Of a stretch of DNA of 64,000 bases, positions 4-34,136 are shown piece by piece. The stretch is from Escherichia phage phiEC1. How positions within the stretch are numbered: position 1 is the stretch's first letter; each line of letters opens with the position of its first letter. Made by a program: the position numbers and the translations under genes. The notes under the pieces were generated by a model. It worked only from the letters and a program-made list of their open reading frames with translations. It was not told the origin of the DNA and searched no databases. The stretch lies in the sequence record KY608965.1; one strand, given 5' to 3'.

Positions 4-639
4 ATGGCGACATACTACAGATTGTATATTACAACATTTGAAACATCCACTGGTATAAAGATTTATGGTGGTAAACACAAATCAGTTTACGAAGACCCTT
101 CAAAAGACCCTTATACTGGGTCTGGTACCTTTATACGAAGGGCCAAAAGAAAATACGGTCCGTCTTGTATAAAAGAAATTATATGGTCTAAGCCATTTGA
201 ATCTAAAGCTCTAATGGATGAAGCTGAAGAGTTACTGGTAGATGAATTATCCATTTTAGAAAATTGCGCAAATCTTGTTAAAGGTGGTGCAGGCGGAAGG
301 TCGTATATTAACCCAGAAGATAATCCATCTATAGGACAAAAACGTTCAGCCCAATCTAAAAAGAAAATGTCTGACGCCGCAAAATCAAGAAAATGGACTG
401 AAGAAGGGTTAAGAAAACGTAAAGAATCTACAGCAAGAATGTGGAAAGATTTCAAACATAGACATCCTGATTTTTCTGGTTCAAAAAATCCAGCAGCTCG
501 AAAAGTTAGTGTAAATGGTAAAATATTTAACACCTGCAAAGAATGTGGTGAAGAATTTAATATCACATCAAGCGCGGTTATAGGCCGATGCAAAAACAAC
601 AAACCTAAATGGGCAGGATGGAATTATGTCGACGTATAA
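4..639 (+). mobile_element. Free-standing GIY-YIG homing endonuclease gene (seg-like), immediately upstream of and overlapping gene 14
   Basis: N-terminal YYRLYITTFETSTGIKIYGGKH (GIY...YIG-type spacing) and ENCANLVKGGAGG (conserved Asn-GG region); basic C-terminal half with NUMOD3-like repeats; 3' end overlaps the gene 14 start by 14 nt. Confidence 0.7.
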
Positions 640-1390
640 TTCAAATTTATTTGCAAAGTTAGAAACCCGAGAAGGCTATTCTAAAACTAATGAAACCGAG
701 ATTTTAAACAAATACGTGAACTTCAACAAATACGAAAATAGTCAAACCCTAGCTGATGTGTTAGTAGCAGAAAGCATACAGATGCGCGGTATTGAGTGTT
801 TTTATGTTCCACGTGAATATGTTGCCGTGGACCTTATCTTTGGTGAGGACCTTAAAAATAAATTTACTAAAGCATGGAAATTTGCTGCATATCTGAACTC
901 TTTTGAAGGTTATGAAGGAGCGAAATCGTTCTTCAGCAACTTCGGAATGCAAGTTCAAGACGAAGTTACATTATCTATTAACCCAGGTCTTTTCAAACAC
1001 CAGGTCAACAATCAGGAGCCCAAGGAAGGTGATTTAATATACTTCCCAATGGACAACAGTTTGTTTGAGATTAACTGGGTTGAACCATATGACCCATTCT
1101 ATCAAGTAGGTAAAAATGCGATTCGTAAAATTACTGCAGGCAAGTTTATTTACTCTGGCGAAGAAATCAATCCGGTGCTTCAGAAAAACGAAGGTATCAA
1201 TATACCTGAATTTAGTGACTTGGAACTTAACCCTGTTAGAAATCTTGACGGTATCCATGACATTAATATCGATGAATATTCTGAAGTTGAGCAAATCAAT
1301 TCAGAGGCAAGTGAATACGTTGAGCCGTATGTAGTAGTTAACAACCGTGGTAGACAAAATTCACCATTTGACGATGGGTTTATGAATTAA
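626..1390 (+). CDS. 14: Neck protein gp14
   Basis: Near-identical to T4 gp14 as recalled (…LFAKLE…ESIQMRG.EC.YVPREYV…[30 protein letters not shown]…); synteny 14-15-16-17. Confidence 0.93.
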
Positions 1391-28287: not shown

Positions 28288-28317
28288 ATAGTATCACACA
28301 TCCATGTGTTTGTAAAC
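28288..28317 (-). promoter_or_regulatory. Early promoter GTTTAC-N18-TACTAT with inverted repeat ACACA/TGTGT in the spacer
   Basis: Minus-strand GTTTACAAACACATGGATGTGTGATACTAT immediately after the alt stop. Confidence 0.65.
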
Positions 28318-30404
28318 TATCCTTGGACAAATTTAAACGGAACTGATTCTAAATCCATTAAAGATGCTAACAATTTCAAACCTTTAGGTGCACTAGTTTT
28401 TTCTACAAATGAGGAGAACGATACCGGCTCATCTGATTCGATTTCACCCGTCATAGCAACCACCTCGCCTGTTTCCATGAGAACATCGCCATCATAAATG
28501 ACGGCTTCATCCAACTGGTCTGAGGACATGACTTCAGCTTGAATAAATTTAAGGTTGGATTCTAAACCTGCACCAGTATCAGATGACGCATCTGTAATTT
28601 TATTTATCTGCAAGAGAATGCCTCTAGGCAAAATAATTTCTTGCTCATTAGGGTGATTACTCAACTGTCCTGGATAAATCACGTTAACTTTATGGGCGCC
28701 ATCAATAGCCCATCCAACGTTAACACGGATTTGTTCTGGTGCATGCATAGCTGTTCTTACTTGACTAGGAGAAATAGTAACACCTTCGTCATTATTGTCA
28801 ATGTTAAGCTCTTTGCGAACTTCTTCAGGAGCAAGTCCAAGGGCAACGTTCTCTTTAAACCCGCCAAAAATAATAGGAGCTAGTGAAGTGGAAACATAGT
28901 TTCTGAAGTAGAATACCTTATTTTTAACCATTGCTTCATAAATAGGCATTCTGATAGACTGGGCTCTATACAACGTTAGTCCTTCAGGTAAACGGTCTCC
29001 ATTTAAAAACGCCGAATCAAGACCATCAATAGCGCGTTTAACTTCATCTTCATCTGCAACATCGTAAAAATCTGGTTTATAACGACCTAACAACATATTA
29101 TTGATATCGGTATACGCAGAAGAGGCATATTCACGAATAGCTCGTTTTTCAGCAACAGAGTATTGTTTAGGGTCCCGATTCATTGTTATATTAAAGGTGC
29201 CTCTAGCCGATTCTCGTGCATAAGTATACATCACATTAGACAAGAACGCTGATTTACGTTGTTTCCAAGTTCTTTCAGATACTTCAGCTAAAACATCGTC
29301 AGGCAGTTGGAAATTATCACGTCTAAAATCTTCAAACCATTCGTCTCTAATAGAGTCTGCAATTTCGTTTGCAGCTTCAACAAAAGCGGCTAATGCTTTA
29401 ACAGATGTTGTTTTTTCAGTTTTAATTTTCTTAGCAAACTTTTCTAAAGTTGGCTTAATAACACTGCCATAAGAAACTTCATCAGCAAATCTAAAGGATT
29501 CATCAATACGATTATAAATCTTATTTTCGATATCAGCAACTAAAGTGCCTTTTGCTGTGGACGATGCTTGGGCTAGTACGATTTCATATGCTTCAGGAAG
29601 TAATTCAGCTGTAGCTGGGCCACTAACTTCTTTAGCAGAATTTTCGTATTTCTGGAATAGCTCACCTTCTTGGCGGTCAGCTTCTAAAGATTGACTTGCT
29701 GCAATAGCGCGACGAGAAATTTTAGTACGAGCAATAACAGGCTTATCTTTACGTTTTTCTTCTACAGCAGCAATAGAACCAGCGATAGCCGTTTCTTTGG
29801 TGACCTTTTCGCCAGTCTTTTTACTCACATAAACTTCACCAACATCAGAATCTACTTTCGTGTACAACTCTGTGTTAATGTTAGGGATGCCTTTAATATC
29901 TTCAATGTTGGCATTTTTACGAACCATCATCACATAGGTGTGTTTACCTGTGAATTGATACATTGCAGACAATACTTTAAAACGACCACCAGTTTTAGTA
30001 GAAACTAAACGAGCAAGAAGAGTTTGAAGTTGTTGTCCACGTCCTTTCAATTTCTTAGTAGGGAATCGGAACAAAACTGCATCCATACGAAGAGCTTTAA
30101 CCTGTTCATACACTGTATTGAAAATGGTGTTGATTGCATCAATAGGAGCAGGACCAAGACCATTTTTCAATTCGGCGAGATTACCCTTTTCAGAAAGACT
30201 CATAATAACGACATGAGCGTATTTGTCACCAAGTTTAACTTGTTTTACAGCATCTCCTTCGGAAAGGTAAGAGAATAAACGAACTACGATGTTTGTATCG
30301 ATATCACCAATTTTCCAGACTTGTGGAACTTTAGCTTTAGGGTTCAAATTGACGACAGGAAGACTGCCTTCAGATTCAAACACTTCATTTAATTGTTCAG
30401 ACAT
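28317..30404 (-). CDS. alt: Alt-like ADP-ribosyltransferase (packaged, modifies host RNA polymerase)
   Basis: 695 aa; ART-type segment …YRAQS…FYFRNYVSTSLAP…; position between 54 and 30 as in T4. Confidence 0.85.
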   Translation of the reverse strand: MSEQLNEVFESEGSLPVVNLNPKAKVPQVWKIGDIDTNIVVRLFSYLSEGDAVKQVKLGDKYAHVVIMSLSEKGNLAELKNGLGPAPIDAINTIFNTVYEQVKALRMDAVLFRFPTKKLKGRGQQLQTLLARLVSTKTGGRFKVLSAMYQFTGKHTYVMMVRKNANIEDIKGIPNINTELYTKVDSDVGEVYVSKKTGEKVTKETAIAGSIAAVEEKRKDKPVIARTKISRRAIAASQSLEADRQEGELFQKYENSAKEVSGPATAELLPEAYEIVLAQASSTAKGTLVADIENKIYNRIDESFRFADEVSYGSVIKPTLEKFAKKIKTEKTTSVKALAAFVEAANEIADSIRDEWFEDFRRDNFQLPDDVLAEVSERTWKQRKSAFLSNVMYTYARESARGTFNITMNRDPKQYSVAEKRAIREYASSAYTDINNMLLGRYKPDFYDVADEDEVKRAIDGLDSAFLNGDRLPEGLTLYRAQSIRMPIYEAMVKNKVFYFRNYVSTSLAPIIFGGFKENVALGLAPEEVRKELNIDNNDEGVTISPSQVRTAMHAPEQIRVNVGWAIDGAHKVNVIYPGQLSNHPNEQEIILPRGILLQINKITDASSDTGAGLESNLKFIQAEVMSSDQLDEAVIYDGDVLMETGEVVAMTGEIESDEPVSFSSFVEKTSAPKGLKLLASLMDLESVPFKFVQG

Positions 30405-30459: not shown

Positions 30460-30648
30460 TTAATCCACAATCGGAAGCAAAGTACGATAAACTTCAAAAT
30501 TAGGGCCTTTTTCGTACTTATCAAAATTGTCCATAAAAATATTATAAGAATCGTTATTAGGAAAATCTAATATAATCTGAGAGCAAGAGGTGGAAACATC
30601 TCCACCATCCTTCTTAGCTACAATAACTGTTTCTAAATAAGCTTTCAT
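30460..30648 (-). CDS. Hypothetical protein, 62 aa, translationally coupled to ligase
   Basis: Track ORF uses a GTG start; internal ATG (MKAYLE…) overlaps the ligase stop as TAATG. Confidence 0.45.
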   Translation of the reverse strand: MKAYLETVIVAKKDGGDVSTSCSQIILDFPNNDSYNIFMDNFDKYEKGPNFEVYRTLLPIVD

Positions 30649-32141
30649 TATAAACCTGTCTGGGACCACGGTCCGAATACGTCTTCAAATGAATCCGCTT
30701 CTGTTTTATCAAAACGGAACCCTTTAATAATTGGAAGGAAAATACCTACAGTACCTTCACGGCCTTTAGAATGAACCCAACCATTACATTCGCAATCAGC
30801 AATACGTCCAATCAATTTACCTTCACGAGCTTCAGCCATTAATCGTTCACGGTCTAAATCATGACGCTCATCTAAAGGAATAAGAACCTTTACACCATCA
30901 ACTGTTTTATGAGTTGTATCTTTAAACCCTGAACCACAATCGGTTGTAATACGACGACAACGTGATACGAGTTCGACACCACCTAATTTGTTAGGGTCTT
31001 TAGAGTGTTCGTAGTATCCTACAACTTCTAAAGCGATATCAATAACTTCTTTAAATTTAATTAGGTTCTTAGAGCGTTTGTTTTCCCAATATGAATCACG
31101 GTTTTTAAGGATAATACCTTCAAGACCTTGGTCAACATATTTTTTATAAACCACTTTAGCTTCGTCAAGATTACGAACTAACTGATTTTCAATTGGCTCA
31201 ATTCGCTTAAAGCCTTCAGCCATATTTTCAAGAGCAGCAAAACGAACATCGTATTTCTGACCTTTAATTTTGCCATCAGAATAGACTTCATCTAAAGGAA
31301 CATAGTCCCAGGCTTGAAGAACCATACCTTCCGCTTCTTTAGGAGAAATAGTCCCTTGAAGAGATTTATTTGCTAAACCGTTTGAAGTGCTACGGTCTGC
31401 AACTTGTACTTCTTCAGATTCTTCATTATCACCAAATAAGAACGACAGGTCATTTCCTGAGCTCACAGCCTTTTTAATATCAAATGAATGATAAACCAAT
31501 TCACCGTCGATTAAAACCCCATTAGGGTGTTTTTCACGGGCTTCTTTAGTCATTTCCATTAGTTCATCTGCTAATAGGGTAAGACCATGGTATTCATTAC
31601 CAGCACGAGAAAAGAATTGAACACCGTCATCACGAACTTCAGCGAAACAACGAGCACCATCTGCTTTTAATTGAGCAAATGCAGGCCATTTAATATTTTT
31701 AGTAATCAATTTCTCGTCATATGCAGATGCTAACATCTGCGGTTGCAATTGAATAAGTCCAGGCCATACCTTATTCGCGATAGACACTGAAGCACCTACT
31801 TCAAGGTCTCGCATCATTACACGACGTAGTACTTCTACATCATCAGGTTTACCGTCAGCGATATAACCCATGAGCTCTTTAATTGCTGCATTACCAGTGA
31901 GCTTACGAGTGGCTAATGTGAACTCAATAAAATCCAACATGTCATCTAATTCAAGAAGGCCATACGCTTGAGACCTTTCACCTGGTCCTGGCCATTTCTT
32001 AATATAATACTGAATGCCACGTGCATACGTTAAACGATATACACGTTCAAGTAATTTGTTGTCCTTATTTTTCTTAAGGATTTCCTGTTTTGTTTTAGTA
32101 GAACCGATCGCAGCTATTTGGTTTAAAATATCTAAAATCAT
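30648..32141 (-). CDS. 30: ATP-dependent DNA ligase gp30
   Basis: 497 aa; adenylation motif KADGARC; colinear with T4 DNA ligase. Confidence 0.96.
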   Translation of the reverse strand: MILDILNQIAAIGSTKTKQEILKKNKDNKLLERVYRLTYARGIQYYIKKWPGPGERSQAYGLLELDDMLDFIEFTLATRKLTGNAAIKELMGYIADGKPDDVEVLRRVMMRDLEVGASVSIANKVWPGLIQLQPQMLASAYDEKLITKNIKWPAFAQLKADGARCFAEVRDDGVQFFSRAGNEYHGLTLLADELMEMTKEAREKHPNGVLIDGELVYHSFDIKKAVSSGNDLSFLFGDNEESEEVQVADRSTSNGLANKSLQGTISPKEAEGMVLQAWDYVPLDEVYSDGKIKGQKYDVRFAALENMAEGFKRIEPIENQLVRNLDEAKVVYKKYVDQGLEGIILKNRDSYWENKRSKNLIKFKEVIDIALEVVGYYEHSKDPNKLGGVELVSRCRRITTDCGSGFKDTTHKTVDGVKVLIPLDERHDLDRERLMAEAREGKLIGRIADCECNGWVHSKGREGTVGIFLPIIKGFRFDKTEADSFEDVFGPWSQTGL

Positions 32142-32407
32142 TTGATATCCTCGATTTTGGTTACGGTTCTATTATAAGCCACTTCATCTAGAAGCGATTT
32201 CAGCGTTTTCTGATAAGTGGTAATCCATTTACCGAGTCCTTCAACATAATATTCTGAAATGTAGATGAACCCTTGTTCAACACACTCTTTAAATATTTCT
32301 GCGTCTTTTACTGAACGAAACACCGGCCAGTCTCGAAAGAACATGTTAACATGACCGTAGTCACGTGTGGTGTTTTTGCCATCTGTAATATCATGAACTA
32401 CAAACAT
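32138..32407 (-). CDS. Hypothetical protein (30.1-like)
   Basis: 89-aa ORF overlapping ligase start by 4 nt. Confidence 0.65.
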   Translation of the reverse strand: MFVVHDITDGKNTTRDYGHVNMFFRDWPVFRSVKDAEIFKECVEQGFIYISEYYVEGLGKWITTYQKTLKSLLDEVAYNRTVTKIEDIK

Positions 32408-32416
32408 AATTAGCCC

Positions 32417-33232
32417 TTAACAATTTATAGACCAAGTCCATTTGGACGAATCTAAAGGAAAGTTTTGAATCGTCCACCATGGCTGCATATCGGTTGGTCC
32501 TGGAGTTCGCCAAGTATACGGATTCGACGGAGCGCCAATTTGATTAGGCCATGCACCTGGGCTTGTTGCACCTGATTCTTTAAGCAAATCCGCCAATCGT
32601 TTTAAAAGGTCTTCACGATCTGAATCTGAATTATGCTCAGGTGGAATCAAACGAGATTCAATATCATCCCACGTGTGTACACGTTGTGCAGTGCGAGGAA
32701 TATCATCACGTTCACCACGAGCCAACCAATAAATCGGTACATTAAGAATTTCTGCCGCATGGTCACAATGATGAGCTAAATCGTCAACGTAACAAATTAC
32801 GTTATATTTTGTTTTAGCTAGTTCGAATAATTGTTCCTTTGAAGAATCATGACCACACATCATTACTTCAGAGAAAGCGCCTGGGAACAAAGCATTCAAA
32901 TTAAATTGTCTATTCAATCGAGCATCAATTGAATCACCTAGCGCCGTCACGGCTACAAAATTATAGTCTTCTTTTAGTTTATTGATAACTCGAAGAGCAT
33001 CAGAATAAGGCGCTAAGTAACGAATAAAATCAGAGCTATTATATTTTTCTATTAATTGTTTACCAAGGTTATCGTCGGTATTGAACAGTTTACCAGGAGA
33101 AATAAATTTTTCGTCCTGAATCATTTTTAAAATATGTTCTAATGGAAGATTATATTTTTGGGCAAAATAAGGAAGTCCAGATTGCCAACTTAAACATACA
33201 CCATCAATATCAGTCAAAATAGTAGGCTTCAT
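32417..33232 (-). CDS. HAD-superfamily hydrolase-like protein (30.2-like)
   Basis: N-terminal ILTDIDGV (HAD motif I DxDG[TV]); 271 aa. Confidence 0.6.
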   Translation of the reverse strand: MKPTILTDIDGVCLSWQSGLPYFAQKYNLPLEHILKMIQDEKFISPGKLFNTDDNLGKQLIEKYNSSDFIRYLAPYSDALRVINKLKEDYNFVAVTALGDSIDARLNRQFNLNALFPGAFSEVMMCGHDSSKEQLFELAKTKYNVICYVDDLAHHCDHAAEILNVPIYWLARGERDDIPRTAQRVHTWDDIESRLIPPEHNSDSDREDLLKRLADLLKESGATSPGAWPNQIGAPSNPYTWRTPGPTDMQPWWTIQNFPLDSSKWTWSINC

Positions 33233-33696
33233 AAAGAGTCTCTTAATAGGTTTAACACATCAACAAATTCAGTTTCGGTTAGTATTGTATCATCTTTTGT
33301 TAGGTGGCTAGCCATGCTGTGCTTCAAAATTTTTCCTTTAGAGGCTTGTAAGGCATCACGAAATCCCTTATTTTGGATCGCTGCTTCAAAATATGCATTT
33401 GTGTATAATTCTTTCCACGCTTCAGAGTATCTTGAAAATGGAACTCCCAACCAGAAGAGGGTCCCACGGTCCTGAGCTCTTGCATAAGACCTTCCAGCTT
33501 GTTGGGCGGCAAGCCCGGATAGTCCAAATATACGTCTTTGTTGTTCAACATTTTTCACCTTACATCCTTGGAGAAACCCTTCAAGACCTCCGAATTGAAT
33601 ACCGTCCATAACAAAAGGCCATTGAGCAAAGTTACTTAATGCACATGACGGCCACTTAAAATTACTTCTTATTTCTAATTCAGACATCTTTAACAC
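33229..33696 (-). CDS. NADAR (YbiA/DUF1768)-like domain protein (30.3-like)
   Basis: ALSNFAQWPFVMDGIQFGGLEGFLQGCK matches the NADAR signature (F/L)SNF..WP…DG…E..(F/L)Q..K seen in E. coli YbiA as recalled. Confidence 0.6.
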   Translation of the reverse strand: MLKMSELEIRSNFKWPSCALSNFAQWPFVMDGIQFGGLEGFLQGCKVKNVEQQRRIFGLSGLAAQQAGRSYARAQDRGTLFWLGVPFSRYSEAWKELYTNAYFEAAIQNKGFRDALQASKGKILKHSMASHLTKDDTILTETEFVDVLNLLRDSL

Positions 33697-33895
33697 TTAT
33701 AATTTCAACATCAGCCCAATGACCATAACCAGGTATACGATCTTCGATAGATAAATTTCCGTCATTTTTAGGTAGTTTAATCGATGTGATATACGGTTCT
33801 AAATGGTCTTCTGTATGCGGAGAAACATCTGTCACACGATAAGTAACTTCAACCATTTCCGTACCAAACAATTTCTGGATTAGTTTATTCAACAT
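33680..33895 (-). CDS. Hypothetical protein
   Basis: 71-aa ORF in the 30.x variable region, coupled to neighbours. Confidence 0.5.
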   Translation of the reverse strand: MLNKLIQKLFGTEMVEVTYRVTDVSPHTEDHLEPYITSIKLPKNDGNLSIEDRIPGYGHWADVEIISVKDV

Positions 33896-34082
33896 GTTTC
33901 AACCCTTTAATAGGAGATAACTCTTTACCCATACGTATGTCAGAAGTCCAATCAACCCATTGAACAGCATACGCTTCATTGATAATTCCAGCGGCGGTTT
34001 TAAATTCAGGGAGAACTTTAAAAATCACCCCAGGAATTCCAACACCTTTTAATTGGACTGTTTGTGCTATTAAAAATTTCAT
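33885..34082 (-). CDS. Hypothetical protein
   Basis: 65-aa ORF preceded by an early-type promoter (GTTTAC…TATAAT) about 34090-34125. Confidence 0.5.
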   Translation of the reverse strand: MKFLIAQTVQLKGVGIPGVIFKVLPEFKTAAGIINEAYAVQWVDWTSDIRMGKELSPIKGLKHVE

Positions 34083-34136
34083 ATTTTTCCACTTAGTAAA
34101 GAAATCATTATACTCTAATCCGTCCTTGGATGTAAA

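Follow-up and report, generated by a model that had tools for sequence, protein, structure and literature searches.

Gene 30.3 of bacteriophage T4 encodes AdfN, a guanine-ADP-ribose DNA glycohydrolase that is both necessary and sufficient against the DarTG1 defence (PMC11825919, PMC11125620, PMC11543638). In vitro, the T4 protein takes ADP-ribose off DNA and the E36A and K43A mutants are impaired; T4 phage deleted for adfN becomes sensitive to DarTG1, and ectopic AdfN alone rescues phage RB69 (PMC11825919, PMC11125620). Expressed in uninfected cells, T4 AdfN gives no rescue from DarT1 toxicity (PMC11825919, PMC11125620). AdfN may not act entirely alone, because its full activity probably takes a further factor encoded by T-even phages (PMC11825919). 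Hydrolysis by NADAR proteins gives the guanine back intact, with neither a phosphate nor a nick remaining (PMC11543638). In published transposon sequencing of T4 under DarTG1, insertions in 30.3 were lost (log2 fold change −7.25, adjusted p 0). Thus, both the NADAR identity and the anti-DarT role of gene 30.3 are already known and published for the T4 ortholog.

Here we describe the corresponding locus in a window of 64,000 nucleotides from Escherichia phage phiEC1 (KY608965.1). The window is a Tequatrovirus (T4-like) genome with 98% DNA identity to Escherichia phage p000y, and its DNA matches 691 phage records whose hosts are mostly Escherichia, Shigella and other enterobacteria. Gene order agrees with the T4 annotation, the block under study being that of T4 genes 30.3, 30.2 and 30.1. 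The features of the region are the following:

34107..34136, minus strand: sigma-70-like promoter candidate 5' of 30.5, from a consensus scan only
33885..34082, minus strand: T4 gene 30.5 homolog, 65 aa, phrog_1690 match
33680..33895, minus strand: T4 gene 30.4 homolog, 71 aa, phrog_2042 match
33229..33687, minus strand: adfN (T4 gene 30.3), 152 aa, NADAR-superfamily DNA ADP-ribosylglycohydrolase (activity by orthology)
33324..33551, minus strand: 30.3', a 75-codon ORF in the +1 frame within adfN, a putative internal translation product in the T4 annotation
32417..33232, minus strand: T4 gene 30.2 homolog, 271 aa, HAD-superfamily phosphatase (by motifs and fold)
32138..32407, minus strand: T4 gene 30.1 homolog, 89 aa, DUF3045 (PF11243, E 1.1e-26)
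30648..32141, minus strand: ATP-dependent DNA ligase (T4 gene 30; PF01068, E 1e-26)
28317..30404, minus strand: Alt, packaged protein ADP-ribosyltransferase (PF03496, E 6.5e-28)

A preliminary description of this DNA had reported a NADAR-like and a HAD-like ORF (33229..33696 and 32417..33232), both of which are present on the minus strand, and had placed the pair immediately upstream of the ligase, with 4-nt overlaps coupling the two genes to each other and to the ligase gene. The ATGA overlap of 30.3 and 30.2 at 33229..33232 is real. However, the 89-aa gene 30.1, which that description did not mention even though the region it delimited begins at 32138 and so includes it, lies between the pair and the ligase. 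It is gene 30.1, and not the HAD gene, that overlaps the ligase gene: direct reading of this junction gives another ATGA, with the stop of 30.1 on the ligase start, and a spacer of 9 nt lies between 30.2 and 30.1. At the other end of the block the stop of 30.4 overlaps the adfN ATG by 8 nt. The internal 30.3' frame is open for 76 codons in 14 of the 15 alleles examined. Upstream of 30.5, with which the transcription unit probably begins, a TTTACA and a TATAAT box with an 18-nt spacer (11 of 12 consensus positions) constitute a candidate early promoter for the block from 30.5 to the ligase; in the consensus scan, promoter-like sites in the region were not in excess of those in shuffled sequence. 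Identity to the T4 counterparts is 58% for gp30.1, 64% for the ligase and 52% for gp30.4.

The 155-aa reading of the first ORF carries the NADAR motif as described, but its start is most likely the ATG at 33687 (152 aa, as in the T4 annotation) rather than the GTG at 33696. The protein matches PF08010 (Phage_30_3) over profile positions 1-138 of 138 with 230.9 bits (cut-off 36; E 4.9e-69), and has the same length as T4 gp30.3, to which it is 95% identical in amino acids along its full length. The seven substitutions (window residue, position, T4 residue) are K11R, E89P, I120V, M125I, H128G, T139A and V142I, none of them at an invariant position. Catalytic E36 and K43, as well as the clade-specific H123, are present and invariant in 55 homologs. 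The C-terminal helix is also intact, the ORF ending at the same stop as in T4 and helix 138-151 being modelled with high confidence; the RB69 allele, in which the last 15 residues are missing, is inactive.

More distant relationships were found with family profiles and with structure. The window protein itself gave no match to PF08719 (NADAR) at E up to 0.1 and none in a direct sequence search of the PDB, and NCBIfam held nothing useful for AdfN, gp30.2 or gp30.1. One family member, P0165, narrowly missed the PF08719 cut-off (32.3 against 35.1 bits, E 1.5e-7), and a profile of 55 homologs reached E. coli YbiA (2b3w) in the PDB at E 0.006, with the Glu and the Lys in register. Structure prediction used an alignment without the T4 sequence; the AF2 model of AdfN has a pLDDT of 94 and a pTM of 0.89. 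When searched against the PDB with Foldseek, its top three matches were 2b3w, 8bau and 8bat, which are all three solved NADAR structures and the sole high-probability matches. The NADAR assignment made from the letters alone is correct, and so is the accompanying guess of an anti-DarT role; both have been shown experimentally for the T4 protein. We consider gene 30.3 of the window to be adfN, which would encode a stand-alone NADAR-fold anti-DarTG1 enzyme, its activity and phenotype being taken from the T4 ortholog. During infection, the host DarT1 toxin would put ADP-ribose on guanine bases of phage DNA; AdfN would then cleave the N-glycosidic bond between ADP-ribose and guanine, and the release of ADP-ribose would restore a replicable template and neutralise the DarTG1 defence.

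No DarT1 ADP-ribosyltransferase gene lies next to adfN, whose neighbours are 30.4 and 30.2. AdfN is an orphan, as published, because the operon has no DarT1 gene and the only ADP-ribosyltransferase nearby is Alt, a protein ADP-ribosyltransferase of the exoenzyme type (PF03496). The preliminary description had identified Alt and the ligase correctly, as Pfam confirms, but a functional meaning of the vicinity of Alt is not supported: alt is neutral in T4 under DarTG1 (log2 fold change −0.01), and Alt is a neighbour only, with no part in AdfN function.

The second gene had been taken for a HAD phosphatase from its N-terminal motif I, and this is confirmed by the remaining motifs and by the fold. 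The catalytic motifs of gp30.2 are D8 and D10 (motif I, DxD), T96 (II), K132 (III), and D150 and D151 (IV). Over 52 homologs D8, D10 and K132 are invariant and T96, D150 and D151 are found in at least 90%; in a core alignment of 27 sequences D150 and D151 are invariant as well. The confidently predicted fold is a Rossmann-like core interrupted past motif I by a helical C1 cap (residues 16-72). The HAD domain with its cap takes up residues 1-195; beyond it come a helix and a Trp/Pro-rich tail that is disordered. A frameshift relative to the T4 tail was considered and rejected, the frame being identical and the tails 28% identical. C1 caps are lids of the helical type that favour small-molecule substrates, and polynucleotide phosphatases are capless.

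Curated HAD profiles all scored gp30.2 below their cut-offs (HAD_2 with 16-17 bits against 23.8, TIGR01428 with 12.7 against 125.4). No curated model exists for this family, and HAD membership therefore rests on motifs and fold, by which gp30.2 is judged a genuine HAD-superfamily phosphatase. Foldseek matches of the model in the PDB include 3bwv, 2jao, 2i7d, 1q92 and 4mum, the nearest solved folds being 5'(3')-deoxyribonucleotidases. A direct phmmer search of the PDB gave a single match, the cytosolic 5'(3')-deoxyribonucleotidase cdN (2jao), at E 0.17. The NT5C Pfam model did not match at E up to 10, a profile of the full-length alignment yielded only noise in the PDB (an amidase, via the variable tail), and a Pfam scan of longer HAD-family proteins (P0241, P0285, P0229, P0186 and others, from a search of 1.8 billion proteins) revealed no informative fusion partner. 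Our literature search on gp30.2, alone or with 30.1 and 30.3, found no paper on its function. We take gp30.2 to be a separate enzyme, a Mg2+-dependent HAD phosphomonoesterase; from the predicted structure we infer that it most likely dephosphorylates a small nucleotide-type substrate.

The question is then what the adjacency of these two genes means. Our preferred reading, to which we give a probability of about 85%, is that 30.3 is adfN, that 30.2 encodes a separate HAD phosphatase, and that their adjacency is lineage-specific synteny with no two-enzyme pathway behind it. In the published T4 transposon sequencing under DarTG1, 30.2 (log2 fold change −0.12, p 0.61) and 30.1 (−0.01) were neutral like alt, and both were also neutral in LB and M9 medium. 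A survey of 78 loci points in the same direction. In 70 of 71 related loci, across genera, the HAD gene stands just before the ligase gene, and only 35 of 72 loci have adfN within 6 kb of it; the phages behind these 72 loci are related, so that the samples are not independent. Elsewhere adfN is found in tRNA clusters (KPV15, EnC15, EcS1) or beside NAD-salvage genes (AS-zj). In other lineages its upstream neighbours belong to unrelated PHROG families, and outside the T4-like cassette no partner gene of AdfN is therefore conserved.

On another reading, rather unlikely in our estimate, the conserved block would be HAD-(DUF3045)-ligase and not NADAR plus HAD, and gp30.2, together with gp30.1, would assist the phage ligase or DNA metabolism as an accessory whose importance is confined to conditions as yet unscreened; such an accessory might remove a phosphate block, or a phosphorylated nucleotide, made by another host defence. 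Another idea is that gp30.2, possibly with gp30.1, strips 3'-phosphates or similar blocks from nicks in preparation for ligation, as T4 polynucleotide kinase does with its own HAD phosphatase domain. The position of the HAD gene on the upstream side of the ligase across genera speaks for it, and so do the Aeromonas phages, in which the HAD gene sits between the gp32 SSB gene and the ligase within a replication gene cluster, and one metagenomic contig with a natural in-frame fusion of the gp30.2 HAD core to DUF3045 directly upstream of the ligase. However, the model of gp30.2 has a closed C1 helical cap, a lid that phosphatases acting on polynucleotides lack, and T4 already has the PseT 3'-phosphatase according to its annotation. 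Moreover, in T4 the 30.2 gene is fully dispensable (72 of 72 TA sites carry insertions) and the ligase is essential, and adjacency of phage genes is often historical rather than functional. We regard end processing of this kind as clearly unlikely.

The preliminary description had suggested that the two proteins may form one ADP-ribose-processing module. In such a module AdfN and then the HAD phosphatase would act on ADP-ribose chemistry, co-expressed with the ligase to finish the repair of ADP-ribosylated DNA; the phosphatase would, for example, process freed ADP-ribose or a phosphorylated ribose remnant. Such a module would fit the ATGA overlap within one co-directional block that includes the ligase, the direct contact between adfN and the HAD gene that is seen in Acinetobacter phage 133 as well as in T4-like loci, the similar taxonomic spread of the two families (about 1,440 and 1,510 phage records) and the AdfN-potentiating factor that T-even phages are said to encode (PMC11825919). 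Nevertheless, it is largely refuted by the contrast between 30.2 (−0.12) and 30.3 (−7.25) under DarTG1. In about half of the loci, and throughout whole genera, there is no linkage between the two genes, the conserved neighbour of the HAD gene being the ligase; the T4 protein by itself acts on DNA in vitro and alone rescues RB69; and NADAR hydrolysis, which yields intact guanine, offers neither a phosphate nor a nick to process (PMC11543638). A shared pathway is in our view very improbable. We also rejected, as hardly conceivable, a mirror of riboflavin damage control (a YbiA N-glycosidase with a YigB-type HAD phosphatase, acting on pyrimidine-ribosyl phosphate intermediates and not on DNA): among solved structures AdfN is closest to YbiA, whose role in the control of riboflavin intermediates has been cited (PMC11125620), and one gp30.2 homolog is labelled 'FMN phosphatase YigB' by JGI, but that label is an automatic annotation of a single homolog, the phage clade has His where Glu defines the YbiA subfamily (PMC11125620, PMC11543638), neither gene has a minimal-medium phenotype in T4, and T4 AdfN acts on guanine-ADP-ribose in DNA and decides DarTG1 resistance, a published phenotype that makes such a reading needless.

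A weaker side lead concerns gene 30.4, which could be the AdfN-potentiating factor because it and adfN form a two-gene cassette in T4-like lineages and because its insertions are partly depleted in the published T4 screen under DarTG1 (log2 fold change −1.79, adjusted p 0.014); this depletion could also be a polar effect. Gene 30.4 is found nowhere but directly upstream of adfN, in those loci that most resemble T4, and in lineages that lack 30.4 and 30.3 at this locus 30.5 directly abuts the HAD gene.

Through adfN, a lytic phage reverses ADP-ribosylation of its DNA by means of a bacterial antitoxin enzyme that it has as an orphan copy; as this story is already published, the window adds to it only one more intact allele. 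The new points are modest and comparative, namely that among T4-like phages gp30.2 is tied to the ligase and not to adfN, and that the HAD-DUF3045 fusion exists in one contig. Although widely conserved and endowed with a clear enzyme fold, gp30.2 has given no phenotype in T4 under any of the conditions screened to date. A contribution of gp30.2 that is redundant or confined to particular conditions could have escaped the T4 transposon screens. For annotation, the lesson is that the tight overlap of two phage genes is here no predictor of a common function.

Compared with the systems described so far, the closest is T4 AdfN (gp30.3; Johannesman et al., Nat Commun 2025, PMC11825919), encoded in a sister phage by the same gene at the same place upstream of 30.2, which also has E36, K43, His123 and the C-terminal helix and differs only by the seven substitutions. 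The DarG1 or DarT1-associated NADAR antitoxins (BC4488 subfamily; 8bat, 8bau; Schuller et al., Mol Cell 2023, PMC11543638) share the YbiA/NADAR fold and the catalytic Glu and Lys, and hydrolyse guanine-linked ADP-ribose as the window protein should by its orthology to T4 AdfN; in contrast to them, AdfN of the window has neither an adjacent DarT gene nor the N-terminal extension, and the Asp of the last strand is replaced by His. E. coli YbiA (2b3w; PF08719) comes closest to AdfN in structure (Foldseek E 4.9e-5, TM 0.68) and has the SNF...DG...E..Q..K motif in common with it at an identity of only 17%; however, AdfN of the window stays under the PF08719 threshold and belongs to the sister family PF08010, the Glu of YbiA being His in the phage clade. 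Concerning gp30.2, the 5'(3')-deoxyribonucleotidases cdN and mdN and 3bwv-like proteins (HAD subfamily I, NT5C) share with it the DxD motif I, the four-helix C1 cap and a similar size, and give the best TM (0.60-0.70, target-normalised) and the lowest rmsd among phosphatase matches, at 14-19% identity and with no NT5C Pfam match; unlike them, gp30.2 has its own invariant cap residues (W16, S18, Y64, N65, S67) and a long disordered tail. Finally, the phosphatase domain of T4 polynucleotide kinase/phosphatase (PseT) is capless and acts on polynucleotide 3' ends, whereas gp30.2 carries a C1 cap.

The genes at 32138..33696 are part of a block of genes, all on the minus strand and covering 28.3-34.8 kb of the window, in which the T4 map order alt - (alt.1) - 30 - 30.1 - 30.2 - 30.3 - 30.4 - 30.5 is found again. 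The DNA of this segment matches 691 phage records, with Escherichia and Shigella hosts in most, and is 98% identical to that of Escherichia phage p000y. The three products, listed below, all fall in PHROGs families of unknown function.

Genes of the segment in the window
33229..33687, minus strand, ortholog of T4 gene 30.3 (adfN, anti-DarT factor), 95% identity to T4, PF08010 Phage_30_3 (E 4.9e-69)
32417..33232, minus strand, ortholog of T4 gene 30.2 (HAD), 70% identity to T4, sub-threshold Pfam HAD_2 match only
32138..32407, minus strand, ortholog of T4 gene 30.1, 58% identity to T4, Pfam DUF3045 (E 1.1e-26)

Direct reading of the sequence and its junctions confirmed as real both ORFs named in the preliminary description and the motifs quoted for them. 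The ATGA overlap in which 30.3 stops and 30.2 starts was also correctly described; the HAD gene had been said to overlap the ligase gene (gene 30) as well, but an 89-aa DUF3045 gene, 30.1, intervenes after a 9-nt spacer, and it is the stop of this gene that is joined to the ligase start by another ATGA. Translation of 30.3 probably does not begin at the GTG at 33696; the ATG annotated in T4 is at 33687, where it gives an 8-nt overlap with the 30.4 stop. At 34136..34107, upstream of 30.5, a sigma-70 consensus scan found a strong match that agrees with the consensus at 11 of 12 positions. It is a candidate promoter from which 30.5 to ligase would form one early transcription unit; promoter-like matches over the whole region show no excess relative to shuffled sequence.

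The NADAR assignment of gp30.3 holds, as profile searches link the family to NADARs and the catalytic residues are present. E36, K43 and H123 (T4 numbering) and the PxxALSNF motif are invariant in an alignment of 55 homologs. The profile built from it matches YbiA of E. coli (2b3w, E 0.006), the Glu and Lys lining up, and one family member matches Pfam NADAR at E 1.5e-7, slightly below the curated cut-off. AlphaFold models gp30.3 with high confidence (pLDDT 94, pTM 0.89), and the only meaningful Foldseek matches of the model in the PDB are YbiA 2b3w and the NADARs of Phytophthora (8bau) and Geobacter lovleyi (8bat). The adfN allele of the window is full length, with all required features present. 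Compared with the T4 locus, its 95% identity constitutes an island of conservation amid more diverged neighbours (30.5 64%, 30.4 52%, 30.2 70%, 30.1 58%, ligase 64%, Alt 41%), which could reflect strong constraint or recent adfN exchange among T-even phages. Within adfN, the T4-annotated internal ORF 30.3' (+1 frame) spans 33324..33551 on the minus strand, 75 codons in the window. Of 15 alleles with a main frame 85-100% identical to that of the window, 14 keep the +1 frame open over 76 codons. The internal ORF may be a translated product or a by-product of composition. Among natural gp30.3 variants (protein clusters P0103-P0106, P0112-P0117, P0150, P0180), many are truncated to 83-126 aa, and others carry a fused domain from a gene nearby (PF11097, PF06919 Gp30.7, PF06019 Gp30.8). 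Such variants indicate that the 30.3-30.8 region often suffers deletions and probably that phages sensitive to DarTG1, like RB69, occur in nature.

The NADAR and anti-DarT part of the preliminary description stood, as did its ORFs and motifs, but the proposal that the NADAR and HAD proteins form a two-gene module is contradicted by published T4 genetics, NADAR chemistry and our synteny survey. On E. coli K-12, T4 needs none of 30.1, 30.2 and 30.3, and under the host DNA ADP-ribosylating defence DarTG1 the insertions in 30.3 are lost (transposon data, bioRxiv 10.1101/2025.11.20.689424).

Change of T4 transposon insertions under DarTG1 (log2FC; negative, depleted)
30.3, −7.25, adjusted p 0
30.2, −0.12, p 0.61
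30.1, −0.01, not significant
alt, −0.01, not significant

In minimal medium, too, insertions in T4 30.2 show no effect in these data. NADAR hydrolysis yields intact guanine and free ADP-ribose (PMC11543638) and, since the guanine is restored intact, no DNA remnant is left for a phosphatase or ligase to finish. For the survey, 78 viral contigs with a gp30.2 homolog were fetched and their neighbours located, giving 72 loci at 38% identity or more. Of the 71 among these that include downstream DNA, 70 have ligase just after the HAD gene and on its strand; only 35 of the 72 have an adfN homolog within 6 kb upstream. In loci lacking 30.4 and 30.3, gene 30.5 directly abuts 30.2, so 30.4-30.3 behaves like a cassette in a 30.5 / 30.2-(30.1)-ligase backbone. 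The HAD gene of Aeromonas phage AS-sw, related to AS-zj, lies between gp32 and ligase.

Three adfN homologs lie among the clustered tRNA genes of their phages, well away from both ligase and the HAD gene.

adfN homologs in tRNA clusters (compared loci)
L003 6001..6447, Kagamiyamavirus EcS1
L087 3001..3450, Jiaodavirus KPV15
L088 3001..3450, Karamvirus EnC15

In Aeromonas phage AS-zj (L004 6001..10509), the homolog has a PRPP synthetase gene about 400 nt away and a nicotinamide phosphoribosyltransferase gene at 2.5 kb, placing a NADAR near NAD-salvage genes; a weak HAD paralog of Vibrio phage D527 (L007) also adjoins a nicotinamide phosphoribosyltransferase gene. The slot between HAD gene and ligase in Aeromonas phages holds, in place of DUF3045, a 153-aa protein annotated as 'hydrolase' (AS-sw, L006 5603..6064), with homologs in L046, L049, L057 and L068-L073, a phrog_3668 match and no Pfam match.

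T-even phages probably encode another factor required for full AdfN activity (Nat Commun 2025, PMC11825919). By position gp30.2 is the obvious candidate, but the T4 transposon data argue against it. The same published data describe a partial depletion of 30.4 insertions under DarTG1 (log2FC −1.79, adjusted p 0.014) and a log2FC of −3.0, not significant, for 30.5; both genes occupy 33680..34082 (minus strand) in the window. This could be due to polarity on adfN or to a genuine contribution. In the survey, 30.4 was found in T4-like loci alone, always immediately before adfN, and the genes upstream of adfN in other lineages are unrelated. As a contributor to AdfN activity, 30.4 is a low-probability lead.

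Conservation of gp30.2 was read from alignments of 52 homologs and of 27 homologs (core). In both, D8 and D10 of the DxD motif I and K132 of motif III do not vary, and T96 of motif II is nearly invariant; the motif IV residues D150 and D151 do not vary among the 27 core sequences and are nearly invariant among the 52. A DxD in HAD motif I marks phosphatases and mutases, not dehalogenases. In the AlphaFold model the core has pLDDT > 90 and strand 1 is followed by an inserted helical cap, residues 16-72; a single helix comes after residue 195, and the remainder is a disordered tail. Residues and model together support well a predicted HAD phosphatase with a competent active site and a small-molecule substrate; a nucleotide 5'-phosphatase is a weak inference. 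A search of 1.8 billion representative proteins placed 1,131 clusters in the family at E <= 0.001, and the members scanned had neither a Pfam family of their own nor an informative fusion partner. The tail (residues 186-271, window 32417..32674, minus strand) is rich in Trp and Pro, which account for 7 and 10 of its 86 residues, and is predicted to be disordered. It is only 28% identical to T4, in the same frame, against close to 90% for the core, and homologs from Acinetobacter, Shewanella and Serratia phages are devoid of it. It may be a fast-evolving docking region.

The strongest clue to gp30.2 is its constant position before ligase. A second clue comes from a single short metagenomic contig, from a cluster of 3 sequences, that encodes the HAD core fused in frame to DUF3045/gp30.1; it suggests that 30.2 and 30.1 may be partners in a role related to DNA metabolism.

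Fusion on contig L089 (Logan, run SRR21148734; 1.4 kb)
234..1142, HAD-DUF3045 fusion in a single ORF, counterpart of window 32138..33232

Its HAD core is 69% identical to gp30.2 and its DUF3045 part, which takes the place of the disordered tail, 47% to gp30.1; ligase starts about 100 nt downstream, and adfN is absent upstream in this 1.4-kb contig. In Rosetta-stone terms, the fusion hints at joint action of 30.2 and 30.1.

NADARs reverse guanine ADP-ribosylation, and in phage NADARs a His replaces the last-strand Glu/Asp (Schuller et al. 2023, PMC11543638). The T4-phage NADAR gp30.3 hydrolyses guanosine-ADP-ribose in vitro (Toxins 2024, PMC11125620). Johannesman et al. (Nat Commun 2025, PMC11825919) mapped the DarTG1 resistance of T-even phages to 30.3, renamed it adfN, and reported that it is necessary and sufficient against DarTG1, that AdfN takes ADP-ribose off DNA, and that E36A, K43A and an RB69-type C-terminal truncation impair it. 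The anti-DarT role proposed for the NADAR protein of the window is correct but already published for its T4 ortholog, and the countering of DNA ADP-ribosylation by a phage NADAR is experimentally established. Beside this known system, the residual value of our analysis is that gp30.2 is put more clearly as a ligase-linked phosphatase without assigned function.
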